Assembly: GCF_000372865.1 (NCBI RefSeq)
Contig: NZ_KB889965.1
Coordinates: 1,724,990-1,748,989, forward strand
DNA from: Methylosarcina fibrata AML-C10
GTDB lineage: Bacteria > Pseudomonadota > Gammaproteobacteria > Methylococcales > Methylomonadaceae
Length of the DNA: 24,000 bases
Direction: 5' to 3'
Below the pieces are notes generated by a model, which made no database searches, was not told where the DNA came from, and saw nothing but the letters and a program-made list of their open reading frames with translations. Shown in pieces: positions 621-21,807 of this stretch (positions are counted from its first letter, which is position 1; each line of letters opens with the position of its first letter). The position numbers were made by a program, and so were the translations under genes.

Positions 621-1283
621 TTATCCTGCCATGATATAAACCGTTGACCGATCTTCCTTATCGCTCCATCGAATGTGATAGCGTTTCAATTCATTTCTTT
701 GAAGCCATTCATAAAGTGATTCAGCACCTGGTCGCCATTCAATACCCTTATCCTCGGCATACACCGATATTTTGGATATGGCGGTAATTGCCTCGCTAAA
801 TAAGCCTGCCAGGAACGCAGCGTGAGTCCAAAGCGATTCTTCTTCTTTTCTTATTTCAGGCGTTGCTCGTGTCAATATTCTTCGTTCTGCGTACCTGATT
901 GAAAACAGAGAGACTTCCAGGCAGAAAGAAAATAATCCTCCCAACAACTTGAAATGATTTTTCTCGGAAGCAGGCAGCAAGTGCGTCATTTCAGCAAGAT
1001 GCCTTATCGGGGACATGATCTTTTTTTCTACTTCATCCTTGTTATGTGCTCCAGCCAATCCTCTTGCCAAAATGATTTGCTTGATCATTTCCTTATTTTT
1101 TTCGATCAGCAAATCAGTGGGAATAACGGGTATACCAGTCGGGAAGCCTGGCAATCTCTGTGAATATTCCTCAAAGACATCCAGACTAATTGACTGGGCA
1201 TTTACAACATCTGATTTCTCAAGATTTAACTTGCTACGTGCAGGCTTTTTTTTCTTAAAAATCGCAGCAATTTTTCTGATCAT
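621..1283 (-). CDS. N-terminal portion of a MobH/TraI_2-like relaxase homolog with a degenerate His motif.
   Basis: 220-aa ORF. IRHLAEMTHLLPASEKNHFKLLGGLFSFCLEV matches the LPAS-x-x-HH-x-x-x-GGL-x-H-x-LEV signature of MobH relaxases, but the histidines are replaced by N-H-F and F-C. Its start lies 3 nt after the stop of the upstream gene. Confidence 0.6.
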   Translation of the reverse strand: MIRKIAAIFKKKKPARSKLNLEKSDVVNAQSISLDVFEEYSQRLPGFPTGIPVIPTDLLIEKNKEMIKQIILARGLAGAHNKDEVEKKIMSPIRHLAEMTHLLPASEKNHFKLLGGLFSFCLEVSLFSIRYAERRILTRATPEIRKEEESLWTHAAFLAGLFSEAITAISKISVYAEDKGIEWRPGAESLYEWLQRNELKRYHIRWSDKEDRSTVYIMAG

Positions 1284-1286
1284 TAT

Positions 1287-1988
1287 TTATCCATGAAACT
1301 TGATGTAATGGTCGATGAGATTCTGAATATTCCGACGCATCGATATGGGATCGATGGTGTTTCTGAACTCTATGTCTACCGTTCCATTCGTGCCGGCCGA
1401 ATCCAAATGAATGGTGCCAATTCCCATCAATCTGTCTAATACGCCTTGTTGAACACCAATTGTTTTTATATCGCCAAATCGTATTTGTACTTGGGACTGA
1501 GCAATAATCCCCTTTTTGAGGATGATGCCATCATCGTCAATGTAAAGTTTTTCGGCAAAGTAGCTGTAAATAAACCTCATTCCATAAAGGAAGAGGAATA
1601 CACCGCTCAATCCTAGTAGATCGCCAATTCCTTTTAAATTAAGCCATTCGGGAATCGTTTCGATGCCAAAGCAATAAAATACCCAACCCATAACCCTGTA
1701 TGGGTTCATGATTAGCAAGCCTCCTAGAATTATTTCCAAATAATTTGTTACAAATCCTCGCCAAGCTTGACGGAACTCGCAGGATTTGAACTCGTTTTCT
1801 GTTTCGCCTTTTTTATTTGATTTTTTGATGCTTGATTGAATCCGATTTGCCGTAAAGCCCAAATGGTTATCGGGCATTACGGTGTATTCGTCGCCCGTTT
1901 CCCGTAACAACAATTCGCACATGTCCATCGCATCGTCGAAGCTTGCAAACGAATTCATCCTTAAATTCATCAGTTTGTTTTTTGACAT
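1287..1988 (-). CDS. Membrane protein with two TM helices and a C-terminal bacterial PH (bPH_2, YdbS/YdbT-like) domain.
   Basis: There are two hydrophobic segments (YLEIILGGLLIMNPYRVMGWVFYCF and IGDLLGLSGVFLFLYGMRFIY). They are followed by KLYIDDDGIILKKGIIAQSQVQIRFGDIKTIGVQQGVLDRLMGIGTIHLDSAG, which is typical of bPH_2. I prefer the ATG at 1988 (MSKNK...) because AGGAGA sits 7 nt upstream; the track's longest ORF starts at 2018. Confidence 0.7.
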   Translation of the reverse strand: MSKNKLMNLRMNSFASFDDAMDMCELLLRETGDEYTVMPDNHLGFTANRIQSSIKKSNKKGETENEFKSCEFRQAWRGFVTNYLEIILGGLLIMNPYRVMGWVFYCFGIETIPEWLNLKGIGDLLGLSGVFLFLYGMRFIYSYFAEKLYIDDDGIILKKGIIAQSQVQIRFGDIKTIGVQQGVLDRLMGIGTIHLDSAGTNGTVDIEFRNTIDPISMRRNIQNLIDHYIKFHG

Positions 1989-2043
1989 GACTGGTTCTCC
2001 TGAGTGCTTGGTTCTCATTTAATTAAGCTGCATTCAATTTGGT

Positions 2044-3384
2044 TTAGTTATGAACTCGTGAATTCGGAACTCTGACCATCGTAAATCGCGATCGCGTCTC
2101 GCCCTTGTTGCTCATTTGTGCACCGATGACTTGAAATGGCTTGATGTATTGCATGTATTTTGATTCCACCTTCATTTTTCTTACTAAGTTGTCCCAATAC
2201 ATTTGATCGACACCCAAGACGATCTTTGTGGCAACGTTTGAAAAAAAGTCTTCAGAAAAATGTGTAGGCGATTGGCTCGCGCAAATAAGGCCAAGGCCAA
2301 ACTTCCGACCTTCTTTAGCAATGGTGTTCAGGATGTTGTTTTCATCCTCGCGGAAGAATAAATGGGCCTCATCTATGATCATGATGTCCCGCAACATACC
2401 TTCATCCTCCCTTCGAACCGGGCCTCTTTCGAGTGCAGATGAAAAAATTTCTTGGAGCCTGAACTCAACAAACATTCGCTTTTCATCTTCACGAAGTGCT
2501 GTGATGTCGTAGTGCCAAACTGGATTTGATGGATCGAATGGTGGTTGCTGATTCTTGAATATCCCGCTTGCTTTGAGATTTTCGAATCGCTCAACAACCG
2601 ATTTCAAAACTTCTTTTGATTCATATTTGATGAAGTCTTCCAGTTCCTTGCCGGTTTCCAGGTTCTCTATGTAAGCTTTATAAGACTTGATCGCTTTTTG
2701 ACGCAGATCCATCGCTTTCTCTAGCAAATCGCCATCAGGCTTTGCGCCAGGCGCTGAAAGCTGCTTGTTTATTTTGTAGAGCTTCGTTGTGATTTTGTTT
2801 AGTTCTTCCAGAGCTCTTCCAGCTTGTGTGTCACTTCCAATAATGAGCTGTTTGAGTTTGACGAATGCGTAACGGCAAGCGTCATCCATGGTTGGGTAAC
2901 GTTTTGGGTATTTACGATCAATTCCATCATGCAAAACCCAGGATTTGTAATTGTCAGCATAGAACCCGTTGGCTGCATAGAGATCGGTAATTAAATGCCT
3001 CATGACAGCTTCTTGCCTTGAACCGATGGGACGGCATCCATTAATTGTTGCAATAAAGTCTTGTACACGCTTTCTCACGCCACCGAAATGACGATCCTGA
3101 CTTACTACAAATGGATTTAGCCCGTATTCTGTGGATTCCGAGAACCTGACGGACGATGTTCCGCTTAGATCGATATCGCCATGCACGTCCATGATATGAA
3201 TTCGTGGAGCGGGTGAAAAGTGATGCATTTGTTGAATCACTCTTCGCAAAAACGTGGTTTTTCCCATGCCTGTTTTTCCCATAACCAGCATATGGGCATT
3301 CACCAGGCAATCGAAATCGCAAAACACCGGGGAGGCTTGATTTTTTGACAAGAGATAATCATCTTGTCCGAGCTCTATCTTCAT
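2044..3384 (-). CDS. Soluble HerA/FtsK-superfamily P-loop ATPase (DUF87/AAA_10-like).
   Basis: Walker A is VMGKTGMGKTTFL and Walker B is MIIDEAHLFF. The EGRKFGLGLICASQSP segment is typical of HerA/VirB4-like ATPases. No TM segment is present, and there is a long coiled-coil insert (residues ~190-270). Confidence 0.8.
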   Translation of the reverse strand: MKIELGQDDYLLSKNQASPVFCDFDCLVNAHMLVMGKTGMGKTTFLRRVIQQMHHFSPAPRIHIMDVHGDIDLSGTSSVRFSESTEYGLNPFVVSQDRHFGGVRKRVQDFIATINGCRPIGSRQEAVMRHLITDLYAANGFYADNYKSWVLHDGIDRKYPKRYPTMDDACRYAFVKLKQLIIGSDTQAGRALEELNKITTKLYKINKQLSAPGAKPDGDLLEKAMDLRQKAIKSYKAYIENLETGKELEDFIKYESKEVLKSVVERFENLKASGIFKNQQPPFDPSNPVWHYDITALREDEKRMFVEFRLQEIFSSALERGPVRREDEGMLRDIMIIDEAHLFFREDENNILNTIAKEGRKFGLGLICASQSPTHFSEDFFSNVATKIVLGVDQMYWDNLVRKMKVESKYMQYIKPFQVIGAQMSNKGETRSRFTMVRVPNSRVHN

Positions 3385-8852: not shown

Positions 8853-9790
8853 TCAGCGCTTCAATAGTTCACTGACAAATTCATGAAGCGACTTTTCCTG
8901 TTCTGTGCTCAGCGCGGCGCATGACAATGTCAGAGTTATCTTTCTTCCATTGTTTTTTAACTTGCCTACTGCCTTGCCTTTTTCGTTAATGAAAAGCATG
9001 GGTTCTGAATTTGATTGACTTCCAGGTGATAAACTTGGTTTTTGAATGGATGATGCTAATGTCGCTATTCTTTCGATCTCGGAAGCTACTCTTATCTGGG
9101 TCAATTCCCCGGCTTCAACGAGCTCAATCGCTTGTAGCGTTGCTTCACGATATCTTTGGTGGTCAATTGTTTCTTTGGCAAAGAGTCTCTTCAGTTCCTC
9201 TGCTGCAGTTCGATTCAGTAAAAAAGGGTTTTTATCCAAAACCGATCTCAACCACTCCGGCAGTTCCATAAACGCCAAATAACGGTAGAGTTCGCTTCTC
9301 GTTTTTTTAAGATAGCGAGCTAATTCAGTTCGGCTTCCAAAATTTTCTTCCACGCCATGAATGGCCAATGCCACTTCATAATCGCTCAAGCCTTCGCGAT
9401 CAAGGTTTTCAGCCACCGCAATCAATCGCATTTGCATATCATCGGCGCATTTCACTATTGCGCTGATATGCGGTTTTTTAAGTTGCTGATGAGCACGCCA
9501 GCGTCTTTCGCCAGCGATAATTTGAAACCGGTTTTCATGTTTTCTAACAACGATAGGTTCAATCAAACCGTGCACATCGATTGATTCAGCAAGCTGTTCA
9601 ATTTTTAATTGGTTAAAGTCTCTCCGGGGTTGCCATGGATTCGGGTCTATCAATTCCATTGCTATGGGTTGACTTTCGCCGTCGCTACTGGTCAATGAAA
9701 AAATTGGGCCCGAGGCCAAGTGTTGATCGAGATTGTTCTTGGATAAAGACTTCAACTTATCAAGAGGGGATTGCTTTTTGGTTTCATTCA
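8853..9790 (-). CDS. parB: ParB/Spo0J-family partition or DNA-binding protein.
   Basis: It has the ParB box GLIEPIVVRKHENRFQIIAGERRWRA and an HTH region. I prefer the ATG at 9790 (MNETKK), which has AAGGA upstream. The track start at 9815 has no SD and lies inside the palindromic motif at 9808-9824. Confidence 0.9.
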
Positions 9791-9807
9791 TTTTGGCGTT
9801 CCTTGAC

Positions 9808-9824
9808 TGTCTCATTCTGGGACA
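9808..9824. promoter_or_regulatory. Copy 2 of the 17-bp motif, TGTCTCATTCTGGGACA, in the parA-parB junction.
   Basis: Direct read; same orientation as the other copies. Confidence 0.55.
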
Positions 9825-9864
9825 GAGAAATTTTTTTTTCGACCCTTTGTGAGACGAGTCCTAT

Positions 9865-10704
9865 CTAATTCACGATGGTTTCTTGGTTGTTTTGTTCCAG
9901 GCCTAACTTTTCGATCAGATACTGCGCCAATTCCTCAAAATCCTTAGCCACTTTCCCGTCTTTTTCCATTTTCCGTATCGGCATCCGGGCAATTGACGCT
10001 TCGCCAACCTTTGCGCCTGCATGGATTACCATCGGCAATATATTGCCAATCTTCTCCTGTACTGTTTCAAAAATAGCTTTGCAGGCCCGTCTTCTTTCAT
10101 CGTGTCTTGAAATCAATACACCGATATTGATCAATTCCGGATTGATGCTTTCTTTGATCCGATTTATATATGCGGTAAGGTCGGCTACCCCGTATAAAGG
10201 GTACTGGCTGCTGGTTTCGATCGGAACTATGTAGTGGGTTGATGCGGCCAACGCATTGCCAGTAAGCAATCTAAGTGACGGCGGAGTGTCGATGATGATG
10301 ATATCGTACGCTTCGCGTAACATTTCAATACGCCGGCGCATCTCTTCGTATGGCCTTGGTGAATAATTTCTCAGCGACTCTTCAACTGACTGATCAAGTT
10401 CAAGCGATCCCGGTATTAAATGCACATTTTCAAATCCTGGGTTTGTTTCGATTTGAATCGACTCCATGATTTCCTCAAGACTGCCGCGAAACAATACGCT
10501 TGAGTTTTTACTTAATGTAGATGGGTGCGCGACACAAACATGAGTGCTTGCATTTGCTTGAGGATCAACGTCGATTAAAAGCACATTGAATCCTTGAGCG
10601 CCTAATTCGGCTGCCAAATTTACAGCAAGCGTTGTTTTGGCTGAGCCGCCTTTTTGAATGGCTACGGTAATGACCGGCGCTAATCCTGTTTTTTTCTCGC
10701 TCAT
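9865..10704 (-). CDS. parA: ParA/Soj-family partition ATPase.
   Basis: Deviant Walker A is AIQKGGSAKTTLAVNLA, and IIIDTPPSL is also present. AGGA RBS. Confidence 0.9.
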   Translation of the reverse strand: MSEKKTGLAPVITVAIQKGGSAKTTLAVNLAAELGAQGFNVLLIDVDPQANASTHVCVAHPSTLSKNSSVLFRGSLEEIMESIQIETNPGFENVHLIPGSLELDQSVEESLRNYSPRPYEEMRRRIEMLREAYDIIIIDTPPSLRLLTGNALAASTHYIVPIETSSQYPLYGVADLTAYINRIKESINPELINIGVLISRHDERRRACKAIFETVQEKIGNILPMVIHAGAKVGEASIARMPIRKMEKDGKVAKDFEELAQYLIEKLGLEQNNQETIVN

Positions 10705-10744
10705 TGTTTTTCCTGTTTTTTAAATTGAGTGATTTATGTGCCTG

Positions 10745-10761
10745 TGTCTCATTGTGGGACA
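10745..10761. promoter_or_regulatory. Copy 3 of the 17-bp motif, TGTCTCATTGTGGGACA, 41-57 bp upstream of the parA start.
   Basis: Direct read. The palindrome extends to CTGTGTC...GACACAG. Confidence 0.6.
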
Positions 10762-10844
10762 CAGCGATTCCTTCGAATCACGGTTCATTTTCCGCATATT
10801 TGAAATAATGCAACCAACCACAAAAAGATTCCTTTCCAGGAGGG

Positions 10845-10861
10845 TGTCTCATTGTGGGACA
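10845..10861. promoter_or_regulatory. Copy 4 of the 17-bp motif, identical to copy 3 and exactly 100 bp from it.
   Basis: Direct read. It lies between the integrase stop (10878) and parA. Confidence 0.6.
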
Positions 10862-10877
10862 ATTTTTATCGCTGCGA

Positions 10878-12572
10878 CTAAGATGCCTTTTCTTTGTCAC
10901 TCAATCCCAGTATGGCCTTGTATCGCTCATCCCGGTCGGTATGAACATAGATAGAGGTCGTGGCAATGTTGCTGTGACCAAGATTGTCTCGAACGATTGC
11001 TAAGGGGACACCGCTGGCAACAGCGTGACTACCATGGGTGTGCCGCAGCCAGTGCGTACTGGCTCGCTTTAGTTTTTCTGCTGCTAAAGGGTCTTTATCA
11101 GCTACTTCACTCGCCGCCTCTTCGAAAAATCCTTTGAGTTTTTGATATAGTCCTGACGCGCTAAGCGCTTCTCGACTTTCCCCGCGCAGCTTTCCGATAA
11201 TGGGCGTGTTCTCTGACACGTAGCCAACTGGACCGAGCTTTCTATCCCGAAGATGAGCATTAATTCCATCCATAAGGCTTGGTGGGATGGGTATCTCTCG
11301 ATGTTTATTACCTTTTCCAATAACATCAAGCCACCATTGATCGCCATCAAAGTTTGATACTTGCTTCAGGTCGCCAACTCGTGCATGCACTATTTCGTGT
11401 AACCGAAGCCCAGTTTGATATGCAAACTTTAGGATAAAGACCGTGCGCTGGTAACCATTGCGTTGCGATTCTGTTAAAGCAGTATTTTTTGCCTGATTCT
11501 CAGCAAATACGTTAATTTGCCCCCATAATGCAGGAGACAACACACGGTCTGTACTGTTGGTTCTTCGCCCATATCCTTGTGTGCTTAACCCTGTAAAAGG
11601 ATTGCTATCCAAATAGCGCTGCCCCACCAGCCATTCACAAAGACCGCTCAGGATGACTTCGGATTGGCGAATGCTGGATGGTTTAAGTGGCCCTTTTAAT
11701 GGGCGCCATTCCGGAGACCATCTTGGCGCTGGCTTGCCAACCCATCGATTGGCTGGATGGGGATCAGCAAGAAACCGCCTGTATTCAGCACAGTCAGGCA
11801 TTGTAATTGAAGACAAGGCCTTTCCTTTCTCAAGGATCGCCCAAAGCAGGAATCTTTCAGCTTCTTTACGATATGCGCGGTGTGTTGATGTGTCGTCGCC
11901 CCAGAGCGATAGCCATGCCATAATTGACTCGTAATCATTACGCGCATCAATTCTGCATCGTTCTATGGGTGCCCGGTTTGTACCGGCTTCACCTGTTAAA
12001 TGCGCAGGCGGAGCAAACCGTTCCAATGGTGCGATGCGATTACTAACGACAACCACATCAAAATTGGTCGCCTTTTTAGACGACAGGTCTAAAGAGATGC
12101 CTATATCATCCGCTGATGTCGAAAAAAAATCGTGGATTGCTTCTGCTGATTGCTTCCCAAGATTGGGTACTTTTTTCCACCAACTGCCACCGTGCTGATT
12201 GATAAACGCTGCGAGTTCAGCCAGTGTTTTTATTTTTTTGACGCAGGCTAACCGAGCCGAAATTTGCTGCGGGAGCCATCGGTTGTAATGATCTTCTGAT
12301 TGAGGCTTGGGATCTGGCTTTGACTTGAGCGTATCAACAGATTTGAGTGCTCGATTCATCCATTCCTGGCTGTATTCCCGATCCTGCTCCCATAGTTTTG
12401 CATCACCATCTATTCCTAGTTGCTGTGCTTTTCTTGCAAGTTTTTCGCGTAGCAGCCTAACAACACGCATAACCTCATTTCGGTCTGCGTCGTCGAGATA
12501 CATTTCCCCTATGACATCCCATGAGATGCCTTGAATCCAACTGCGTATTAATGCTAATTCACTAGGATTCAA
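10878..12572 (-). CDS. Tyrosine recombinase/integrase with a long N-terminal extension.
   Basis: The complete catalytic set is present: GLRLHE (R), GKGNKHR (K), HWLRHTH (HxxR), LGHSNIATTSIY (H, Y). The N-terminal extension contains an HhH-like segment, VPNLGKQSAEAI. The apparent TTG start overlaps the KfrA-like stop (TTGA), so the start is uncertain. Confidence 0.9.
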   Translation of the reverse strand: MNPSELALIRSWIQGISWDVIGEMYLDDADRNEVMRVVRLLREKLARKAQQLGIDGDAKLWEQDREYSQEWMNRALKSVDTLKSKPDPKPQSEDHYNRWLPQQISARLACVKKIKTLAELAAFINQHGGSWWKKVPNLGKQSAEAIHDFFSTSADDIGISLDLSSKKATNFDVVVVSNRIAPLERFAPPAHLTGEAGTNRAPIERCRIDARNDYESIMAWLSLWGDDTSTHRAYRKEAERFLLWAILEKGKALSSITMPDCAEYRRFLADPHPANRWVGKPAPRWSPEWRPLKGPLKPSSIRQSEVILSGLCEWLVGQRYLDSNPFTGLSTQGYGRRTNSTDRVLSPALWGQINVFAENQAKNTALTESQRNGYQRTVFILKFAYQTGLRLHEIVHARVGDLKQVSNFDGDQWWLDVIGKGNKHREIPIPPSLMDGINAHLRDRKLGPVGYVSENTPIIGKLRGESREALSASGLYQKLKGFFEEAASEVADKDPLAAEKLKRASTHWLRHTHGSHAVASGVPLAIVRDNLGHSNIATTSIYVHTDRDERYKAILGLSDKEKAS

Positions 12573-13498
12573 AGTGAAATCCTTTCGCCGGTTAGTTTTT
12601 CTGCAGGGCGGCGCTGTTTTTTGACCAACGCCTGCAACTTAACGGATCGTTCTTTCTCTTGAAGCAACGCTTTTTCCGTGCTTGACAGTTCGGCCCGCAA
12701 TTTGTCGACTTCTGCCTCTAGCTTACCTTGGCGTTCTAACTGATCTCCAACTTGATTCATGATTTGTGTCAGTCTTGCGCGTAACGATTCCTGATCAAGC
12801 CTTGCTGTTTCCAGGGATCGATTCAAGTTTGAAATGATTCTGGCTTGCTCGTTCTTTGCCGATTCCTTTTCTTCCTCAATCCGCTTCAGATGCCAAAGAT
12901 GATCTTTCTCAGATTTTTCCGACCATTCCTTGGCTTGAATCTCGTGTGATTTTCGTGCTTCTTCGAGTGCACCTTCTGCTCTTGAAAGATTTTCTCGATT
13001 AATAGCCAATGCGAATTCTGTTTCTTTGAAATTTTGCGTTGCGACTTCCAGGTTTTCGACCAAGCCATTAACCAAAGCGATTTGTTCGGCCAAGGCTTGG
13101 TTCAGTTCGTCTTTTTCAGACTCCCGTTGCTGTTGATTTTCTATTAATTTTTGTTCGAGACATTTGAGGTGAGATTTCCATTCAGACTCTCGGAGTGATA
13201 GCTCTTTCTCTTTTGCTTCGTATCCCTTCTTTGCCTCAATAAGAGCTAGATTCCAGAGTGATTCTGACGCATCCACGATAACCGCAGGTATATTTGGATT
13301 TTCTAACTTTTTACGATGCTTTTCGACAAAATGCAGAGTCCAATCATTCATCGCCCGCTTGATTACGGCGGGGCTATTCACATGAATGCGATCCCGAATG
13401 GCTTCAATCGTAGGAAACCGTCCGTCTTCCAAAAACACTGAATTGCAGCATTCGTAGGCAAGGGAATAGGTATCTGATCGCTTTTCCATTTCGCTCAC
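12569..13498 (-). CDS. KfrA-like protein: an N-terminal DNA-binding domain plus a long coiled coil.
   Basis: EDGRFPTIEAIRDRIHVNSPAVIKRAMNDW fits the KfrA_N pattern (G-x-x-PT...R......S..I.....W). The remaining ~230 aa are E/K/L/Q-rich coiled coil. There is a GTG start at 13498, or an ATG at 13489. Confidence 0.7.
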   Translation of the reverse strand: MSEMEKRSDTYSLAYECCNSVFLEDGRFPTIEAIRDRIHVNSPAVIKRAMNDWTLHFVEKHRKKLENPNIPAVIVDASESLWNLALIEAKKGYEAKEKELSLRESEWKSHLKCLEQKLIENQQQRESEKDELNQALAEQIALVNGLVENLEVATQNFKETEFALAINRENLSRAEGALEEARKSHEIQAKEWSEKSEKDHLWHLKRIEEEKESAKNEQARIISNLNRSLETARLDQESLRARLTQIMNQVGDQLERQGKLEAEVDKLRAELSSTEKALLQEKERSVKLQALVKKQRRPAEKLTGERISL

Positions 13499-13623
13499 TT
13501 CCCCAGGGACATTGCCAAGTCAAAATTCAGCTGAAGTTTTTTTTGTGCCCGTGTTGCGGCAACAGAAAGAATATTCAGAGCTTCGGTTTCAACAAAGCAT
13601 TTCTGTTCTTGCGTTAATTGCAT
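13495..13623 (-). CDS. Candidate 42-aa small ORF (MQLTQEQKCFVETEALNILSVAATRAQKKLQLNFDLAMSLGK).
   Basis: It is below the track's size cutoff. GAGGAA SD sits 5 nt upstream of the ATG at 13623. Its TGA overlaps the GTG start of the KfrA-like gene (GTGA). Confidence 0.3.
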   Translation of the reverse strand: MQLTQEQKCFVETEALNILSVAATRAQKKLQLNFDLAMSLGK

Positions 13624-13638
13624 GATTTCCTCGCGTCT

Positions 13639-13660
13639 GAGATTTTTCTAAAAAAATCTC
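13639..13660. promoter_or_regulatory. AT-rich palindrome GAGATTTTT-ctaa-AAAAATCTC between the upstream operon and the small ORF/kfrA-like gene string.
   Basis: 9-bp perfect arms. No U-tract follows on the minus strand, so an operator is more likely than a terminator. Confidence 0.35.
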
Positions 13661-13689
13661 ACGGACTTTAAAAAACGCAAGCGGCACTA

Positions 13690-14178
13690 TTAATACGCTT
13701 GCTCAATCCTCGACCTGGTTTTTTCGTCAAGTTCACTCCATACGGACATTACTGCTCTTCCTAATGCCGCCTGTTCATCCCTTTCTCGACCAAACATCCA
13801 ATAGGCGCCAACAACACTGACGGCCGATCCTGAGACGGCGATAGCCAGCGCAATCAATACTTGCGACCGCAGCGACAACCCATCCGATCGCTTCACTTCG
13901 TTGACCATCCGATTCACCGTTTTGGCCACTGATGCATTTAACTTTTCCTCGAACGCCTTTTTTTCCTTCTCTGCCACTACCGCAAATTCGACCTGCTTTT
14001 CGTGTGCATGACTTTCCACTTTTGAAATCGATGAAGCCAACTTGTCTTCCAGTTCAAGAACCAGTGGAACCATTTTGGCCTCCAAATCGCCGATCCTTTC
14101 AATGAGCACGCCGACGTCACCAATCGCTTCTATAATGAGCGCGTCCCTTGTCGTTCGTGGATGCCTGGTTTCGCTCAT
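13690..14178 (-). CDS. Coiled-coil protein with one C-proximal TM helix, in the third position of a traKLM/stbABC-like operon.
   Basis: 162-aa ORF with the TM segment VLIALAIAVSGSAVSVVGAYWMF. It starts 6 nt after the stop of the ParA-like gene. Confidence 0.6.
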   Translation of the reverse strand: MSETRHPRTTRDALIIEAIGDVGVLIERIGDLEAKMVPLVLELEDKLASSISKVESHAHEKQVEFAVVAEKEKKAFEEKLNASVAKTVNRMVNEVKRSDGLSLRSQVLIALAIAVSGSAVSVVGAYWMFGRERDEQAALGRAVMSVWSELDEKTRSRIEQAY

Positions 14179-14184
14179 GGTCTT

Positions 14185-14892
14185 TTAGGAAAATAGTTCC
14201 ACGTAACAAGCGTCCAGATTTCGATTAACGCTTTTTGCCAGAGCTTTAAGCCCAAACATCTCACTCCAATGGCTTCGCTTTTTATCATCCGCGTCCCTGT
14301 TATCGTGTAACAAAGCCTTATAGTTTTTTGGGTCAGATAGCAATTTTTCGATGGATAACTTTTTTATTGCCAAAACATCAAAGAGCTCGTTTTCAAAAAT
14401 GGCCGCTTTTGTATTGATTATTGCGTTGTTATTTTTACTAACATAATTAAGCAAAATCTGAAATTCATCATCAACGCTTGACTCGACACGATTAAATATC
14501 ACCCTTACCTTTTCTTTCGGCACTCCTAATCCTGCCAAAGTACCAATCATCGATGTTGTTTCTCTCTGCTCTTTTGTACCGTTTGTTACCGGTATAAGAA
14601 AATAGTCGAACTCAACATGTGATTCGTCGAATTTATGCATGCCTTCCAAAAAATCTTGGATATTTGATGCACCGATATCGATTATCACATCATCTTCTAC
14701 CATTAACCGTTTGAACAGCTCTCTGAACTTTTCCCCTTTTATTTTTTCAACCGCTATACCAATACTCTCCGCCGTTTCGTTAATGCTTTCCACCGCAATT
14801 ATTTGCGCTCCATTCATGCGTGGTGATAATAAATGCGTTGCGATAGTGGTTTTTCCAACGGTACCCGTAAAATTCATGATGGCTACTTTCAT
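14185..14892 (-). CDS. ParA-superfamily P-loop ATPase of the TraL (IncP) / StbB (R388) type.
   Basis: The P-loop is MKVAIMNFTGTVGKTTIA. VIIDIGASNIQDFLEGM resembles TraL's VVIDNGASSFVPLSHYL as I recall it. At 235 aa it is close to TraL's ~240 aa. Confidence 0.75.
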   Translation of the reverse strand: MKVAIMNFTGTVGKTTIATHLLSPRMNGAQIIAVESINETAESIGIAVEKIKGEKFRELFKRLMVEDDVIIDIGASNIQDFLEGMHKFDESHVEFDYFLIPVTNGTKEQRETTSMIGTLAGLGVPKEKVRVIFNRVESSVDDEFQILLNYVSKNNNAIINTKAAIFENELFDVLAIKKLSIEKLLSDPKNYKALLHDNRDADDKKRSHWSEMFGLKALAKSVNRNLDACYVELFS

Positions 14893-14924
14893 TGCCTTAT
14901 TCCATTTATTGTTTAACTTGTAAT

Positions 14925-15407
14925 TTAATCTTCTTGTTCGTTATCTTTAATTTCATCGTACTCTTCGTCATGTTCTCTAAGGGTTTTTATCCGCATATCT
15001 CGTATCTCCTTGGGAGTCAAAAATTTTTTATTGGCTTGTTCATTAATTGATTTTTCTTGCTGAGAATCTTTTGTTACTAAAACACTTGAATTATTTTCAT
15101 GGATATTCAATCTTATAATTCCTTTGTTTCCTTTTTGGTTTGTTTCTGGTTCTTGGTTATTGCCCTTTCTCTTTTTTCTAATCCGGTATAAGTTTTTCTC
15201 GAAAGTTTTAAGGCTCATACTGATACCAAGCGACTCGCTAATCGCTTCAAGAACTTTTTCCCGGCGCACCCCGGATGACAAGGCTAACTCCACTGAGTCA
15301 ATTACCTCCCTTAATTTGGCTGCCTCTGATTTCCCATCAATCCCGCTTGCCAGCTTCGCTAGCTTTTCAATCGCATCAGTTTTTCTGTTACCCAACGAAC
15401 GCCCCAT
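14925..15407 (-). CDS. Small basic putative DNA-binding protein (KorA/TrfB-like HTH), in the first position of the traKLM/stbABC-like operon.
   Basis: 160-aa ORF. VLEAISESLGISMSLKTFEKNLYRIRKKRKGN looks like an HTH plus a basic tail. AGGA SD lies inside the first upstream repeat. Confidence 0.55.
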   Translation of the reverse strand: MGRSLGNRKTDAIEKLAKLASGIDGKSEAAKLREVIDSVELALSSGVRREKVLEAISESLGISMSLKTFEKNLYRIRKKRKGNNQEPETNQKGNKGIIRLNIHENNSSVLVTKDSQQEKSINEQANKKFLTPKEIRDMRIKTLREHDEEYDEIKDNEQED

Positions 15408-15411
15408 AAAA

Positions 15412-15539
15412 TGTCCTACTAGTGCCCTGCGACTATCCTGCGGCGGTACTGAACTGTCATGAATTATTCATTTTTTTGTCCTGCACGCGTCCTATGAATG
15501 TCCTGTGGTTTTCCTTTAAATGACCTGCAAGTGTCATGT
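15412..15539. repeat. Phased iteron-like array of 9-10 copies of TGTCCTGC-like octamers at an exact 11-bp period, in two blocks.
   Basis: Block 1 starts at 15412 (TGTCCTAC), 15423 (TGCCCTGC) and 15434 (TATCCTGC). An isolated TGTCATGA lies at 15455. Block 2 starts at 15477 (TGTCCTGC), 15488 (CGTCCTAT), 15499 (TGTCCTGT), 15510 (TTTCCTTT), 15521 (TGACCTGC) and 15532 (TGTCATGT). Confidence 0.8.
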
Positions 15540-15573
15540 GCCAGCTTACCTAGAACCACAATGCAAATCAGAT

Positions 15574-15602
15574 CGAAAGAGGCGGGAAAACCGCTCCTTT
15601 CG
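15574..15602. other. Imperfect 12-bp hairpin CGAAAGAGGCGG-gaaaa-CCGCTCCTTTCG just beyond the repeat array.
   Basis: 10 Watson-Crick pairs, 1 G-U pair and 1 mismatch. The position is compatible with an oriT-type inverted repeat, but the function is unknown. Confidence 0.3.
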
Positions 15603-16481
15603 TTTTGGCGATGGATTGACGTTGACAATAGCTATTAGCTCAGTAGAGAATAAAAATTCGTTTATGGGTTTCCTGCATCAGGACGCACTAACCCGACAAG
15701 AACTGCGGCGATCGCAGTATAAAAAGCTTCGACCTCACCTGGACAGCCCATGTGGCGGCACGGATGTCACCAGGCCTAGGCTCACCAACACTGAGTCCTT
15801 TCCATCTTTTCCCGGCATATGCGCTGGAAAATCATCGCACTCAAAGTGCGTCTGTCGATCGCAGCATTGGCTGCTGTTGACCCATAAACCCTTTATCAAT
15901 TATTTGCGCTTTGAGCCCTTGGACGGTAACGCGTAATCAAATCTGACTGGTCAATTTTTTTTGCCCCTGGTCTTTTTTAAAAACATAGACACTTACAGTC
16001 TATGCCAACCCCTCAAAAATCCGCCTTGTAAAACAGAAGCCTATCCACTCCGCGCTTCCAAATTCTCAATAGGAAAAGCTGGGGTTTCTCATATTTTCAC
16101 TTTGAAAAAGCTCAGAATCAGGTATGACCCGGCCAAGAATATTGCGTTGGCTGGCTCGATTGACACCCACCTGTTAGGCATTTTTCATCAAGTTTTCGCC
16201 ACGCGCGGCGGAGAAGAAGTAGCGCATTGACGTTTGTTTTTTCTACACCCTGCTGGGAGGCCAGTCCCAAGCACCTTATGCTCACCGTCGAGAGAACTGT
16301 GTCCGTAGAAAAAGAGGCGTTGGGGATTCCTGTAGGAATTCCCACTGGAGCCGGTTATGCCTGCTCTCGACGTAAAAGATTTTTTTGGACAACCCGGCTC
16401 CACCCCAGAGCGGCTTGTAAAAGCTGTTCCGGCGTGGAGCTGTTGCAACATGGAGCAACAACTTTTTTCTATGAGGAATTT

Positions 16482-16547
16482 ATGGAGACACTGACAAAAT
16501 CAGAAAAGCACGCTTTCAAACATATTTCGGAATGCATGGCTTTGTAA
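16482..16547 (+). CDS. Candidate 21-aa upstream ORF (METLTKSEKHAFKHISECMAL).
   Basis: GAGGAA sits 3 nt upstream of the ATG. Its TAA ends 1 nt before the ATG of the first integrase-like gene. This is very tentative. Confidence 0.2.
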   Translation: METLTKSEKHAFKHISECMAL

Positions 16548-16548
16548 T

Positions 16549-17499
16549 ATGGATAAAGCCATGTTGCGCCACAAAACCAGTCTTCATCAGCTATACAAAA
16601 ACGGCGAGGCTGAAATAACCCGAGCTTGTAATGAGGATTCCAAAACACAAAAACGACTGATTAACCAATGGCTGAGTTTTTGTATTTGGTCGATTACCAA
16701 GGACGGTAATCACCTTGAAAGCATAAGATCGGTAACCAGCGAACATATTATCCGTTACGGACAATATCTAAAGTCAGAATTCGACAACGGAAGATTTGCC
16801 AGCACATTGAGCGCGACGAGTTATTTGTCCGGCATAAATACCCTGATGAAACTAATCCATGGTGGCAACTGGGAAAAGATCAGTCCTATAAAGGATTGCG
16901 GCTTGGAACCTATTTCTCATATTCCAAACAAGAAACCTGGATTAGACAAAAATGGCCTGCCGGATATTGAAAGTCTGGCCGGTTATTTACTCGAACTTCA
17001 AATGTCGCTTGGCGTTGTTATTCGAGAAGCCCTAATTCTGGATTTAAGAGAAGCGCTGATTGAAGGACGCTCGACAGGATTTGTAACCATTACCAACTTT
17101 CAAAATGGAATCCGGAGAAAGGTCCCTTGCCGCCCATCTGCCATCAAAGCCATTGGCAATGGTATAGCGGCCAGGCGCTTGCAAAAACTATTGCCGAAAA
17201 AGTGGGAATTTAACGATTTTCTATCAGCCCATAACAAACTGGCAGCGAGAAAGGGCTACTCAACCAATACCGCCAGAGGCATTTATGTTCGCGACCGGTA
17301 TCAAGAATTGGCCGGTGTCGAACCGCCGATCATTTCCGGACTCGGTCAAACTGAACACTGTCAAAAACTTTCCCAATATTCCAATAAGACACCATCCGAA
17401 ACCAAAGGCATCGACAAAAAAACCCGTCACAATATTGCCAAAGAGATCGGTGTGCTCGGCATAGAACAACTCAAAGAATACCTGGATAAAAAACCATGA
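16549..17499 (+). CDS. Tyrosine-recombinase-like protein A, a paralog of the next gene with a degenerate active site.
   Basis: It aligns with ORF B along its full length (IRYGQYLKSE/ISYGQHLQQQ, KDCGLEP/KDCGIER, IGVLGIEQLKEYL/LGHSRVEISNAYL). It keeps Arg (VIREA), the second Arg (NTARG) and the terminal Tyr. It lacks the Lys (NFQNGIRRK) and both His residues. Confidence 0.7.
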   Translation: MDKAMLRHKTSLHQLYKNGEAEITRACNEDSKTQKRLINQWLSFCIWSITKDGNHLESIRSVTSEHIIRYGQYLKSEFDNGRFASTLSATSYLSGINTLMKLIHGGNWEKISPIKDCGLEPISHIPNKKPGLDKNGLPDIESLAGYLLELQMSLGVVIREALILDLREALIEGRSTGFVTITNFQNGIRRKVPCRPSAIKAIGNGIAARRLQKLLPKKWEFNDFLSAHNKLAARKGYSTNTARGIYVRDRYQELAGVEPPIISGLGQTEHCQKLSQYSNKTPSETKGIDKKTRHNIAKEIGVLGIEQLKEYLDKKP

Positions 17500-18434
17500 G
17501 TCGAAATTACGAAATCGGCAGCCGGGATATGTTCACGGCCGGGAAAATGCTACTGAAAGATCGTTCACCAAATGGGTTCAAAACCAAATCCGATTACAGC
17601 GACCGCTGGCGTCTGTTTTGCATGTACGCAGAAGAAAATGGCGTGAAGAAAATGGAAGATGTCACCCCTGCGTTCGTCATTTCCTATGGCCAGCACCTGC
17701 AACAGCAACTTGAAGCCGGCATCTATTCCAGCGCGTCGGCGCCAAAGAATTACCTATCGACTGTGAATTGCGTCATGCGTTTGGCCACTGGAGGCCTATG
17801 GAAAACTGTTAGGCCGAGTAAAGATTGCGGCATCGAACGCAGAAAATACATTCCCAAGGAATCCAAGGCGCTACCAGAAGCCAAACACCAAGAAGTCCAG
17901 CAAACGATCGATGATCGGCTGTCCAAAATTATGGATTTGCAACGAGTCTTGGGGCTTCGCTTCAAAGAAAGCTGCCTTTTCGATGCCAAAACCGCTTTGA
18001 AACAACTCGAAAAATTTGGCTTCATTACCATCCAGGCCGGTACCAAAGGTGGTCGACCCAGGCGATTGTTCTGTGACGATAACATGCGGAACGTCATTCA
18101 AGCGGCATCCAGTATTCAAAACGGAAAATCAATGATCCCTAAGGAAATGACCTACATCAAATTCCGCCAGGAATGCTACCAGCAGGCAAAGGTGAATGAA
18201 ATTGCCTTCCATCCGGAACGTCATGCCTTCGCGCAAAAGCGTTACCGCGAGTTAGTCAATGCGCCGTGTCCACTTGAGGCTGGATGGGAGCACAAAGGCC
18301 GGATCGAAAAACTGGCCGAATACCTGTCAACTTCCGTAGAAGAAGCCAAGGACATTGACTGCAAAGCCCGCCTCAAAATCTCAATGGAATTAGGTCATTC
18401 TCGCGTGGAGATCAGCAATGCGTACCTGGGCTAG
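17496..18434 (+). CDS. Tyrosine recombinase B (Integrase_1-like) with an intact catalytic set.
   Basis: Motifs are GLRFKE (R), TKGGRPRR (K), HPERH (HxxR), ELGHS (H) and NAYLG (Y). It has an ATGA start/stop overlap with ORF A. Confidence 0.8.
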   Translation: MSRNYEIGSRDMFTAGKMLLKDRSPNGFKTKSDYSDRWRLFCMYAEENGVKKMEDVTPAFVISYGQHLQQQLEAGIYSSASAPKNYLSTVNCVMRLATGGLWKTVRPSKDCGIERRKYIPKESKALPEAKHQEVQQTIDDRLSKIMDLQRVLGLRFKESCLFDAKTALKQLEKFGFITIQAGTKGGRPRRLFCDDNMRNVIQAASSIQNGKSMIPKEMTYIKFRQECYQQAKVNEIAFHPERHAFAQKRYRELVNAPCPLEAGWEHKGRIEKLAEYLSTSVEEAKDIDCKARLKISMELGHSRVEISNAYLG

Positions 18435-18960
18435 GGAGCTGGAATCTTATACTCATGACTACGTACGCCGGGGTGGAAAACAAAACCGCCGCAAGCAGGT
18501 TTCCTTGATCGTGAACTTCCTGGAGTTCACCGACGCCCAAGAAGGATTGACCTCGCTTCACCGCTTGGGCAAGCGTCATGTCATCAATTTCTGGAAAGGG
18601 CATCGAGATATGCCGGAGAAATCGGCCTACGATTATTGGTTAGGGTTTTGCCAATTATGGAGTTGGCTTGGAAAATCCGAGAAGCCACCGCGACCGCATA
18701 AAATGAATGCTCATTCTGATAATCCAGGAACTGAGGAAGCCAATTCTCAAGCGGTTTTGTGCTTCACCGAAATATCTGCCGCCATCAAGACTGCCCGTGA
18801 GGCGAAAAGCATGCCGATCCTTAAGCTTGCAAACTTGTCAGGTTGCGATCCCACGATCCTCAATGAAATCGAAGCCGGTCAATATGGCGCTGCCACCATT
18901 TCAGACATCCAGAATCTGTTGAAGATTTTAAGCGTCAATCTGACCCTAGCTAGGACATAA
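18418..18960 (+). CDS. Fusion of an integrase N-terminal SAM-like domain to an XRE-type HTH, with no catalytic domain.
   Basis: The N-terminal LGKRHVINFWKGHRDMPEKSAYDYWLGFCQLWSWLGKSEKPPRP resembles phage-integrase N-terminal (SAM_2-like) domains. The C-terminal ISAAIKTAREAKSMPILKLANLSGCDPTILNEIEAG is an XRE-like HTH. GGAG RBS, and a 17-nt overlap with ORF B. Confidence 0.65.
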   Translation: MRTWARELESYTHDYVRRGGKQNRRKQVSLIVNFLEFTDAQEGLTSLHRLGKRHVINFWKGHRDMPEKSAYDYWLGFCQLWSWLGKSEKPPRPHKMNAHSDNPGTEEANSQAVLCFTEISAAIKTAREAKSMPILKLANLSGCDPTILNEIEAGQYGAATISDIQNLLKILSVNLTLART

Positions 18961-19001
18961 CCTTCTGAAGACTTAGTACCGTGTCTTTTCGTTTATTTCA
19001 T

Positions 19002-19030
19002 TTGTTTCGTTTATTTCGATTGTGTATAAT
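19002..19030 (+). promoter_or_regulatory. Candidate sigma70 promoter TTGTTT-17-TATAAT for the TA operon, overlapped by a 12-bp direct repeat.
   Basis: TATAAT is at 19025-19030 and TTGTTT at 19002-19007. TTCGTTTATTTC is repeated at 18988-18999 and 19006-19017. This would give a ~145-nt 5' UTR. Confidence 0.45.
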
Positions 19031-19180
19031 GTGCTAGTGACTTTTTTACTGACGACTTACTGAAATTTAAGCTTATTACCAATCTTCAAAATCACACATA
19101 ACGACATACGCATTCAAAAATAGCTGAAAAATCGACATCTAAAGACTGATAAGCACAAACTGACAATACTAGAGAAAACA

Positions 19181-19639
19181 ATGAATACTAAAGAAAGTCC
19201 AGGTCTTCCAACGGAAGCCGAAGTTTCGTTAGCAAAGGAAAGCAGCCGGTTGCTCTCCTTGTACTTGAGCACTAAAGAAGAATCACAATCGATCAGAGTC
19301 ATTGATCAAGCAGGTGAACATGAAGCGGTCAGAATTCCCACTGCCGCATTTCGCTTATTGATCGATGTGCTGTCCGAAATGGCTCAAGGCAATGCAGTCA
19401 GTATGATTCCTGTGCATGCGGAACTCACAACACAAGAGGCGGCTGACATGCTCAATGTTTCCCGTCCGCATCTGATCAAATTGCTCGACAGCGGCGTGAT
19501 TCCTTTTCACAAAGTAGGCACCCATCGTCGTGTGCGTTATCTCCATTTGGTAGATTACAAAGCGAAGGTCGATTCGGAACGATTAGCAGCGTTGGAAGAA
19601 CTATCAGCCCAGGCACAAGAACTAAATATGGGTTATTAA
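19181..19639 (+). CDS. Excisionase-family (MerR-like) HTH antitoxin.
   Basis: LTTQEAADMLNVSRPHLIKLLDSGVIPFHKVGTHRRV is the classic excisionase-family HTH. It lies 3 nt upstream of the PIN gene. Confidence 0.8.
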   Translation: MNTKESPGLPTEAEVSLAKESSRLLSLYLSTKEESQSIRVIDQAGEHEAVRIPTAAFRLLIDVLSEMAQGNAVSMIPVHAELTTQEAADMLNVSRPHLIKLLDSGVIPFHKVGTHRRVRYLHLVDYKAKVDSERLAALEELSAQAQELNMGY

Positions 19640-19642
19640 TTA

Positions 19643-20212
19643 ATGACAAGCTTTTCCGTAGTCTACGACGCATGTGTATTGTATCCAGCACCCTTGCGCG
19701 ATTTACTGATGCACCTTTCTCTGACCGATCTATACCGAGCAAAATGGACGGCGGAAATCCACGAAGAATGGATGCGAAACGTCTTGACCGTTCGTCAGGA
19801 TTTGACACGCGAGCAACTTGAACGAACACGAAAACTGATGGATACCAGTGCCCGTGACTGTCTGGTAACCGGCTACGAATTTCTGATCCCAACTCTGGCT
19901 TTGCCAGACCAAAACGATCGGCATGTGCTCGCTGCTGCAATACGCAGTCAGTCGAGTGTTATTTTAACTTTCAACCTGAAGGATTTTCCTGAAACGGAAC
20001 TCGAAAAATACGATGTTGAGGCGCAACATCCGGATGAATTCATTTCAGATCTGATCGACTTGAATGCGGCCAGGGTCTTGGCGGCTATTGCCAAACACCG
20101 ACAATCCCTAAAAAACCCGCCAAAATCGAGCAAAGAATATTTGGATACCCTGTTGCAACAAGGGCTGCCCGAAACTGTTAGCCAGTTACGGCAATGGGAA
20201 TTATCATTTTAA
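19643..20212 (+). CDS. PIN-domain toxin (PIN_3-like, VapC-type RNase).
   Basis: VVYDACVLYPAPLRDLLMHL, NDRHVLAAAI and ILTFNLKDF provide acidic residues at PIN positions. Confidence 0.85.
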   Translation: MTSFSVVYDACVLYPAPLRDLLMHLSLTDLYRAKWTAEIHEEWMRNVLTVRQDLTREQLERTRKLMDTSARDCLVTGYEFLIPTLALPDQNDRHVLAAAIRSQSSVILTFNLKDFPETELEKYDVEAQHPDEFISDLIDLNAARVLAAIAKHRQSLKNPPKSSKEYLDTLLQQGLPETVSQLRQWELSF

Positions 20213-20288
20213 GCTCTGGCAAATGCTCCACAAGGCCAGCAGAGATTTTTCTGGATGAATAGCTACCAAATCAAAGATTTCATTTACA

Positions 20289-20311
20289 CACGGGTGGCAT
20301 TGCCACCCGTG
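20289..20311. terminator. Hairpin CACGGGTGGC-att-GCCACCCGTG between convergent genes.
   Basis: 10-bp perfect GC-rich stem. There is only a short T-run (CTTT) on the plus side. Confidence 0.5.
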
Positions 20312-20332
20312 CTTTAATAATGAACGTTTCAA

Positions 20333-21478
20333 TTATTGAATCGCTTCGAATAATTCTTGAGCTTTTGTACGAGCTTTGACATCGTCTTCTTGGCCAAGGG
20401 GTTCAATCCTGATGCCCTCTCTGCCATCAACGAACATTGGGCCACCGATGTCATCGTCGTAATGGGATCCATCCTCATGAATAGCGTAATAGTCGTCTTG
20501 AGTCAGATCGGTACCTAAAAGTTGAGAGAGATAAATCCAGGTCCAACAACGCAACAAGTTACCCTGGTCAAATTCTTCGATGAGTCTTAGCATTGCTTCC
20601 GTTTCACCCTTTTCAGCCGCAACGGTTAACCAGGAATGGACATCCTGATAACGATCTAATTTTTCAGCTATTTCTGCTACTTTTAGTGGATCATGATCAA
20701 GCCCATTTCTGGTTTGTTCAAAAAATGTGGGATCATCAAAAAAATCTGCCAAATCGATCAAAGCGAGTTCATTTCCTAAGCGTCCCGCCTCACGGAGATG
20801 GTGCTCGTACTTTTGATCCTTCGCAACGGTGAATGCATACTGTTCAGCCCATTCTTTCTCCACTCCCGCTAATACACGGCCACTTTTTTCTTGGTTATAC
20901 CAAAAATCAAACCCTGGTGACCGTTCGTCTACATCTACGGGGGAATGGATCAAAGCTAAAGCATAATGGGCACTGGCATTCCCTCTTGTAGCAGCATCTT
21001 CAAGGGTTTTCAGTAATTCTTGTGAAATCAAGTCTTGAGGTTCGTCATGGAATGGAGGCCAATCCTTGTCGACCCATTGCTCCAGATTTTCGTCTTCACT
21101 TTCGTCAACATCCTCTTTCTGCCAATCTGAATAACCTCGATAGGATAATTGCTGCCTTAGCTTCAATATCAAATCGGAAAGCAACAAGACATTGATCCGC
21201 TTCTGTTCTATTAAAACCGGAAATTCGGCGACAATGAAATCGGCGACATCATTTGAGTATTCAAGCTCCAAGCAGCGTTTATGTAAGGCCTGTGATTGCT
21301 GGATGCAAGAATGTTCCTGCTCGCCTGGCAACAAAATAGAGTGAGAACTCAGTGCCGCAAAGGAGTTATAGCCAAATGCGGTAGCTAAAAGTTCGTAGAT
21401 ATGAGTCCTTTTGAAAGTGGCGGCAATATGAGCCTGGCAGTATTGATGTGTCTCGAAGACAAATGCTTTGATAGTCAT
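20333..21478 (-). CDS. Hypothetical protein with C-terminal Sel1/TPR-like repeats.
   Basis: Repeats are ATRGNASAHYALALIH, AGRLGNELALIDLADFF and AAEKGETEAMLRLIEEF. I prefer the ATG at 21478 (MTIKAF), with GAGGAA 7 nt upstream, over the track start at 21520. Confidence 0.55.
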   Translation of the reverse strand: MTIKAFVFETHQYCQAHIAATFKRTHIYELLATAFGYNSFAALSSHSILLPGEQEHSCIQQSQALHKRCLELEYSNDVADFIVAEFPVLIEQKRINVLLLSDLILKLRQQLSYRGYSDWQKEDVDESEDENLEQWVDKDWPPFHDEPQDLISQELLKTLEDAATRGNASAHYALALIHSPVDVDERSPGFDFWYNQEKSGRVLAGVEKEWAEQYAFTVAKDQKYEHHLREAGRLGNELALIDLADFFDDPTFFEQTRNGLDHDPLKVAEIAEKLDRYQDVHSWLTVAAEKGETEAMLRLIEEFDQGNLLRCWTWIYLSQLLGTDLTQDDYYAIHEDGSHYDDDIGGPMFVDGREGIRIEPLGQEDDVKARTKAQELFEAIQ

Positions 21479-21807
21479 AAATAATTTCCTCAACACTTCA
21501 TCGTTCTGGGATGAATGCACACGTTTAACGTCCCAACGACGAAGCCATTTAAGAAAATTAAATCAATGACGATATTTGATTGACCTGTTTTTACTCGTGT
21601 GCAAGTAAGGCGGGCGCCATAGATTATTCTAGTCGTTTGATTAATGCTCGTCAAAAAAAGGAAGGAAGGCAAATTCCGCGCTAAGGAACAATTTTCACGA
21701 AACCAACGCTCTTGTAACGAAAGATGCTCAAAAATCACGCCTTTCGTTGTGACCTCACATGTTGTTTTTCATTAGGATCATGCATTTCAAAGGAGACCGA
21801 ATAGTTC

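Follow-up and report, generated by a model that had tools for sequence, protein, structure and literature searches.

The window analysed here is a stretch of 24,000 nucleotides (nt) from Methylosarcina fibrata AML-C10 (NZ_KB889965.1, 1,724,990-1,748,989); all coordinates below are positions in this window. It contains three consecutive open reading frames (ORFs), which we call A, B and C, on the forward strand (Table 1). The junction of A and B is a 4-nt ATGA overlap (reading CC-ATGA-GTCG), B and C overlap by 17 nt, and a GGAG motif stands 7 nt ahead of the ATG of C. The proteins A and B are paralogous, with 27% identity over 286 residues (E = 2e-37). The original prediction for this DNA had described three overlapping and coupled genes, the first two of them paralogous; the ORF coordinates, the alignment and the junctions read in the sequence agree with that description. 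The three genes, together with a structured element directly upstream of them, probably form a DNA-processing (mobilization) module of the MpsA/MpsB (MOB_M) kind, carried by a plasmid-like or integrative element of the Methylococcales. The window itself is probably located in the chromosome or in an integrated element, because a protein identical to A is recorded on a 4.9-Mb contig.

Table 1. Features of the window. Amino acids are abbreviated as aa.
Feature	Position	Strand	Description
TraI_2 (MOBH HD-domain) homologue	1-1283	-	in-frame TAA at 621-623; continues beyond the left end of the window
stbA-like gene (14925-15407) and stbB (14185-14892)	14185-15407	-	divergent from the module
Repeat array	15412-15538	+	direct repeat TG(T/C/A)C(C/A)T(G/A) in eight copies, phased at 11 bp or multiples, beside the start of stbA; candidate site for binding of StbA
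Conserved structured non-coding element	16150-16445	+	about 290 nt, directly upstream of the operon; candidate RNA leader or small RNA and/or folded origin-of-transfer strand
Short leader ORF	16483-16547	+	21 aa, GAGGAA Shine-Dalgarno sequence; TAA stop 1 nt before the ATG of A; read from the sequence
A	16549-17499	+	316 aa; paralogue of B that appears to lack a working active site (Arg-I is V, Lys is N, His-II is N, His-III is V; Arg-II and Tyr kept)
B	17496-18434	+	312 aa; candidate relaxase of the MpsA type (tyrosine-recombinase-like, MOB_M kind; Pfam Integrase_1), catalytic set complete
C	18418-18960	+	180 aa; MpsB-type domain (aa 1 to about 95), disordered linker (aa 97-112), XRE helix-turn-helix (aa about 119-176)

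Homology of B and C to MpsA and MpsB

B matches the Pfam family Integrase_1 (PF12835) with 41 bits against a cut-off of 23, and it can be aligned end to end with the SGI1-type MpsA (39% identity over 315 columns, E = 1e-77). The MpsA sequence was recognized in a Salmonella record among the tblastn matches (L002), which encodes a 321-residue protein with R162, H247, R250, H251 and Y319, the residues and the numbering published for MpsA (PMC6414798); a 98-residue ORF starts one codon past its stop, as described for MpsB (PMC6414798). The catalytic set of B comprises R155, K184, H239-x-x-R242-H243, H301 and Y310. Six of these positions (R155, K184, H239, R242, H301 and Y310) are invariant when 12 B-type sequences, MpsA among them, are aligned, while H243 is not, so the claim that B has every canonical residue (R, K, HxxR, H and Y) is borne out. 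The dN/dS ratio of B is 0.08-0.09, and its family comprises about 390 clusters at 50% identity (E <= 1e-10), nearly all of about 310 residues. By these comparisons B is a full-length homologue of MpsA and a candidate relaxase. MpsA and MpsB are both essential for the mobilization of SGI1, whose origin of transfer (oriT) lies upstream of mpsA (PMC6414798), and the two are regarded as an atypical relaxase (PMC6414798; PMC13635750). PF12835 is taken as a 'relaxase-like integrase' family by a genomic-island classifier on account of the SGI1 MpsA (PMC10484663). A 2026 preprint names this kind of relaxase MOB_M, and reports that it is missed by standard profiles and is very common in chromosomes (bioRxiv 10.64898/2026.01.13.699239).

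C shows the same relationship to the second gene of the SGI1 pair: its residues 1-93 are 32% identical to the 98-residue MpsB (E = 8e-16). The remainder of the protein is an XRE-type helix-turn-helix (HTH). The Pfam family HTH_3 is the sole family match of C (23 bits, right at the cut-off), a profile of the C family matches HipB (E = 6e-8) and the top Foldseek matches are HipB, SinR and C.BclI. The AlphaFold2 model (pLDDT 79) has four helices in residues 3-84, a linker at 97-112 and the HTH at 119-170. The HTH of the original prediction thus stands, while no support was found for the integrase SAM-like N-terminus that it gave to C: among 24 members of the C family HTH families alone were matched in Pfam, with no SAM-like or integrase domain, and an hhalign comparison of the C and B families for a shared core-binding-type domain returned a probability of 0.2%. 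Homology to MpsB takes its place, and the basis for a core-binding or SAM-like assignment of this part of C is the published modelling of MpsB (PMC6414798). The idea that C is a DNA-targeting subunit in which a catalytic domain has been replaced also has to be given up, as residues 1-93 match MpsB and the HTH was gained. From sequence comparison, C is best classified as an MpsB-type accessory protein that acquired its HTH in the Methylococcales.

The distribution of the genes was followed in 68 loci, one genome per species, in which the ORFs of the fetched loci were classified by phmmer (individual loci are cited by their numbers, L001 and so on). Wherever the 68 loci have downstream sequence, the MpsA-type gene has, nearly without exception, an MpsB-type gene behind it, and the two mostly overlap or abut. 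The pair spans the Gamma- and Betaproteobacteria and also occurs on plasmids of very small size, among them pAeme4 (L003, 4795 bp). The fusion of MpsB to an HTH, as a tail of 70-88 residues, is found in the Methylococcales clade only, and an A-type gene stands upstream of B in just one of the 68 species representatives. A-type genes are confined to the lineage of the window (L009-L016 and L019), the Methylobacter YRD-M1 megaplasmid (L001) and the loci L017 and L018. In the sister loci L005, L020, L021 and L033 the first position of the operon is held by an AntA-family gene, and L001 has both AntA and A. The trio had been put forward as a new three-part architecture; the unit conserved across the 68 loci is instead the pair of B- and C-type genes, which on homology and gene order is the known MOB_M-type mobilization core.

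The C-type gene of L017 (12135-13126) encodes a 105-residue MpsB domain without an HTH, though this locus has A; the HTH fusion is therefore not obligatory alongside A. A separate 176-residue ORF follows this gene and has no match to the HTH of the window.

A second link to the SGI1 system is provided by TraI. This MOBH protein with a TraI_2 domain is a cofactor of MpsAB and raises MpsAB-dependent transfer of SGI1 by four logs (PMC13635750). In L007, L024 and L040 the gene immediately behind the C-type gene codes for an intact TraI_2 protein of 405 residues, and a conserved 358-residue protein without a family comes next. The TraI_2 homologue at the left edge of the window may be a cofactor gene of the same sort, and is probably defective; the original prediction had also considered the relaxase homologue of the window to be defective, which the in-frame stop codon supports.

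Plasmids with a homologue of B are mostly (103 of 135) typed as 'non-mobilizable' by MOB-suite, in line with the statement of the preprint that this kind of relaxase escapes standard profiles (bioRxiv 10.64898/2026.01.13.699239). Several such plasmids are only 5-12 kb long, with the MpsA/MpsB-type pair as their largest genes, and these may be mobilizable plasmids that the typing has missed. Megablast searches gave no match for 15400-19000 of the window against plasmids, nor for the SGI1-type region against E. coli genomes.

The paralogue A and its active-site positions

A has no match in Pfam or NCBIfam; its similarity to MpsA is nevertheless clear (E = 8e-27). The positions of the catalytic residues were compared in a joint alignment with B-type proteins. 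At the Arg-I position the A clade has Val: R155 of B is aligned with V157 of A in both the ungapped BLASTP and the MAFFT alignments. The Lys position is occupied by Asn, Ser or Thr, the His-II position by Asn, within a conserved STNTAR motif, and the His-III position by Val, within a conserved GVLG motif. Arg-II is invariant, and the Tyr is kept in 13 of 15 A-type sequences, with Phe or Asn in the other two. The original prediction was right about the loss of the Lys and both His residues and about the retention of the Tyr and of Arg-II. The second arginine that it counted as retained was a misalignment; R159 of A is aligned with K157 of B, and is Trp or Gly in some other A-type proteins. A is therefore more degenerate than had been thought, and with these substitutions it is very unlikely to cleave DNA.

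A is under purifying selection and is not decaying, with dN/dS values of 0.10 (window versus L014) and 0.16 (L001 versus L017). It has 39 homologues at 50-100% identity, all of them from Methylococcales genomes or metagenomes. The AlphaFold2 model of A has a recombinase fold (pLDDT 88), and its top Foldseek matches are the full-length tyrosine recombinases XerA, IntI4, Tn1549 Int, XerH, Cre and lambda Int. Weaker matches are seen to the recombinase-fold repressors YopR, MrpR and SroF (E = 0.03-0.05, probability 0.5-0.9).

The upstream region

The conserved element lies in the 1.1-kb gap between stbA and A. Searches with nhmmer and a covariance model place it upstream of the first gene of the operon in some 25 loci of the Methylococcales, both with and without A, and in every case its strand is that of the operon. 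Its helices show many compensatory changes (RNAalifold). For the structure of the 3' domain, which has 36 base pairs, 94.7% of the cells are paired compared with 37-44% when the partners are slid, and 20 pairs change on both sides compared with 4-8; none of 500 shuffles reaches any of the observed measures. On the forward strand G.U pairs outnumber A.C pairs by 53 to 15, which identifies this as the folded strand. A covariance model of the 3' domain (R1) recovers the element in all members of the clade, including four that were outside the seed, and a search of Rfam with the element gave nothing credible. In most loci 15-35 nt separate the end of the element from a strong Shine-Dalgarno sequence, behind which AntA or a short ORF starts; the position of the leader ORF of the window is likewise taken by comparable short ORFs or by an AntA gene in related loci.

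The element is a candidate 5' leader, processed small RNA (sRNA) or folded transferred DNA strand. An argument for a discrete, terminated sRNA was dropped, as the terminator-like hairpin at 16441-16470 of the window is not conserved in other loci. An invariant TTGACA at the 5' end of the element was considered as part of a sigma-70 promoter, and this was rejected because no conserved -10 box follows. A palindromic hairpin (GGGGATTCCTGTAGGAATTCCCC, 16321-16349) is inserted in the element only in loci that have A or AntA (the window, L014, L001 and L005, with larger insertions in L017 and L027). The GGCTCC of the element has two possible pairing partners, an upstream GGAGCC and a downstream GGAGCT (16261-16270 / 16394-16402 / 16433-16440). 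Both partners covary across loci, A to G being matched by T to C, and the two alternative helices suggest a possible switch.

The stb genes lie on the far side of the same non-coding region and are divergent from the module, an arrangement that is also seen in L033. StbB is clearly identified (NCBIfam, 320 bits against a cut-off of 200). The StbA_2 match has 38 bits and is under its cut-off of 100; the identical gene in L009 has a precomputed match to PF28167 (StbA-like). The module had been described as divergent from a traKLM/stbABC-like operon, and of this label the stb part is upheld while nothing supports traKLM. Same-strand copies of the repeats beside stbA are spaced by 11, 21 or 22 bp, as in an iteron or centromere-like array. 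Over the whole window the motif has 52 matches with 52 expected, so the enrichment is confined to the local cluster. In the IncW plasmid R388 the genes are organized as stbABC-oriT-trwABC, with the stb genes divergent from the DNA-processing genes and 11-bp-phased direct repeats beside stbA. We take the layout of the array in the window to resemble the StbA-binding repeats (stbDRs) of R388. The divergent stbA/stbB and the phased repeats are thus common to both; unlike R388, the window has genes of the MpsA/MpsB kind in place of a MOBF relaxase and TrwA, and the repeats differ in sequence.

Proposed function of the module, and its surroundings

The homology of B and C to MpsA and MpsB supports the view that the module contains a relaxase, and what the original prediction offered as a speculation, a relaxase with a tyrosine-recombinase fold, is now the best-supported reading. 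From these similarities we infer the following scheme. B would be the catalytic subunit and would cleave one strand through Tyr310 at an oriT in or next to the upstream element. C would be its MpsB-type partner, to which the added XRE HTH probably gives sequence-specific DNA binding or autoregulation. A would be a duplicate of B that has been kept in a non-catalytic form and most likely acts at the same site, either as a partner of B (DNA-binding or architectural) or as a regulator. The element of about 290 nt would belong to the module, in the form of a folded RNA comparable to the sgm-sRNA of SGI1 or of the folded transferred strand. The stoichiometric heteromer of A, B and C that the original prediction put forward is plausible, and we propose it tentatively. 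A more specific version is unlikely: that an A/B heterodimer on a symmetric site cuts one strand only, turning a recombinase into a nickase by subunit composition; that it depends on the structured RNA or transferred strand, which would be a new structured-RNA class with a function equivalent to that of sgm-sRNA; and that the HTH of C reads the invariant GTGTCC/GGACAA motifs of the element.

Like mpsA/mpsB of SGI1, the locus encodes a tyrosine-recombinase-like protein of about 315 residues whose catalytic Tyr is located 2-3 residues before the C-terminal end, and an MpsB-type gene comes immediately behind; also shared are a long upstream non-coding region that contains inverted repeats and a functional or genomic tie to a TraI_2 (MOBH) protein. 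It differs from SGI1 in the extra non-catalytic paralogue A upstream of B, in the fusion of the MpsB-type protein to an XRE HTH (180 versus 98 residues) and in its host, a plasmid-like element (ParAB, KfrA and StbAB) in methanotrophs rather than an IncC-dependent island. The sgm-sRNA of SGI1 is an RNA that is required for transfer (PMC9299015), and the element at 16150-16445 is placed like its functional core: it lies on the mpsA strand, with the upstream region on one side and the mpsA-type gene on the other (PMC9299015). No sequence or structure homology of the element was detected in SGI1-type loci; it has no detectable relation to the SGI1 upstream region and yields no prediction of a nic site.

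The original prediction had named TcpM of pCW3 as the precedent. This holds for the class of relaxase and not for the closest relative, since MpsA/MpsB are far closer. MobK of pIGRK nicks oriT in vitro through a conserved Tyr (PMC8152469), and the module shares with MobK and TcpM a DNA_BRE_C-type catalytic domain and the proposed mechanism, in which a Tyr of the protein nicks an oriT that lies just ahead of its gene (PMC8152469). For MpsA, MobK and TcpM no significant similarity in sequence is reported, their domain layouts differ, and no mpsB-type partner is reported for MobK or TcpM (PMC8152469). The layout of the trio also recalls another type of element, as three adjacent, co-oriented genes related to tyrosine recombinases. 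Recombinase-in-trio (RIT) elements have three full-length, catalytically intact tyrosine recombinases of distinct subfamilies and are flanked by inverted repeats. In the window only B is intact, A lacks Arg-I, the Lys and both His residues, C has no catalytic domain and no terminal inverted repeats were found in 12500-21600, in keeping with the original view that this is not a RIT element.

Several points weigh against a mobilization module. The only TraI_2 gene of the window is broken. No gene for a type IV secretion system or a coupling protein was identified in the window, nor in the 75 kb inspected of the 349-kb YRD-M1 plasmid record, so self-transfer is unproven. No counterpart of the element was found in SGI1-type loci (L002, L058 and others) with nhmmer or with the covariance model R1. 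B keeps all of the residues needed for full recombination, and so may be active as a recombinase. The nic site is unmapped even for MpsA (PMC6414798), and the case for the locus is computational throughout.

The role of A allows a different reading, in which it is a transcriptional regulator with a recombinase fold, like the SPbeta/phi3T repressors MrpR, YopR and SroF, and controls the operon or transfer rather than being a subunit of the relaxosome. The repressors of SPbeta-like phages (PDB entries 8a0a, 8bpz and 9rd5) offer a precedent for A, as proteins in which a tyrosine-recombinase fold serves a purpose other than catalysis, and A is conserved in spite of its missing catalytic residues. 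It is also the first gene of the operon, beside a regulatory leader, where sister loci have a gene of the AntA antirepressor family. The repressors do appear in the Foldseek list of A, but more weakly than active recombinases; the match is structural only, with no sequence relationship shown, and unlike the phage proteins A is a recent paralogue of the neighbouring enzyme. The ATGA coupling of A to B fits the co-production of partners, and the presence of both A and AntA in L001 argues that A is not a simple replacement of a regulator. We consider this reading somewhat unlikely, and prefer A as a non-catalytic partner of B.

That the locus is a module for site-specific recombination (to resolve multimers, or to invert or integrate DNA), with B as an ordinary recombinase and A and C as accessory or directionality factors, is distinctly improbable. 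The complete R-K-H-R-H-Y set of B and the full-length alignment of the A model with Xer, Cre and IntI recombinases are what such a module would have, and homologues are found on numerous plasmids of very small size, which could benefit from a resolution system. The closest characterized relative, however, with 39% identity and the same two-gene layout, is a mobilization factor and not a recombinase (PMC6414798). PF00589 (Phage_integrase) has no match to A or B at E <= 1. No att, dif or inversion-type repeats flank the locus: a search of 12500-21600 for inverted and direct repeats gave only scattered pairs at chance level (16-20 nt, 80-94%), and no tRNA gene is present. The element already has a separate integrase of 564 residues; this protein was noted in the original prediction, and DUF3701 and Phage_integrase domains are detected in it. 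Finally, that A is a decaying duplicate without function, a pseudogene in the making, is rejected as extremely improbable: four of its six catalytic positions are lost and most related loci do without it, but the frame is open in all 39 homologues at identities down to 50%, the dN/dS values are low, the replacement motifs STNTAR and GVLG are themselves conserved and the fold is predicted with confidence.

The mpsAB (MOB_M) core of the proposed mobilization module is already known. For the dead paralogue A, the HTH-fused MpsB, the TraI_2 gene linked to the operon in relatives and the covarying element, no description was found in the literature searched. Tyrosine-recombinase-like relaxases have been recognized only recently, and the 2026 preprint reports that no relaxases are more common in chromosomes. 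Their mechanism is unsolved, in particular the polarity of the attack, how cutting is limited to one strand, and what MpsB, TraI and sgm-sRNA contribute. The Methylococcales branch offers natural variants that bear on these questions: an enzyme beside an inactive paralogue, an MpsB with a DNA-binding domain, TraI_2 within the same operon, and an upstream element with enough covariation to define its structure. Large plasmids, and small plasmids typed as 'non-mobilizable', may carry an unrecognized mobilization module, which bears on the prediction of gene flow in methanotroph communities.

Several other genes surround the module. A tandem 18-nt repeat (TTTCGTTTATTTCATTTG / TTTCGTTTATTTCGATTG; 18987-19022, forward strand) lies between C and the next gene, and may be an operator. 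The genes that follow (19181-20212, forward strand) encode an excisionase-type HTH_17 protein of 152 residues and a PIN-domain protein of 189 residues, which are likely to be a toxin-antitoxin pair; the PIN-domain protein has a match of 124 bits to the RSP_2648 family, under the family cut-off. The pair is kept directly downstream of the trio in L009, L010, L014-L016 and L019. An acidic protein of 395 residues without a family match is encoded at 20333-21520 on the reverse strand, with a 381-residue counterpart in the same position in L009, L010 and L014-L016. On the left side of the window, 1287-3384 (reverse strand) encodes a bPH_2-domain protein (243 residues) and then a DUF87/HerA-like P-loop ATPase (446 residues). 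ParB, ParA, the 564-residue integrase and a KfrA_N protein are encoded at 8853-13498 (reverse strand), and this order is kept beside the module in L001 and L014-L016, which points to a common backbone of plasmids or integrative and conjugative elements in the Methylococcales.

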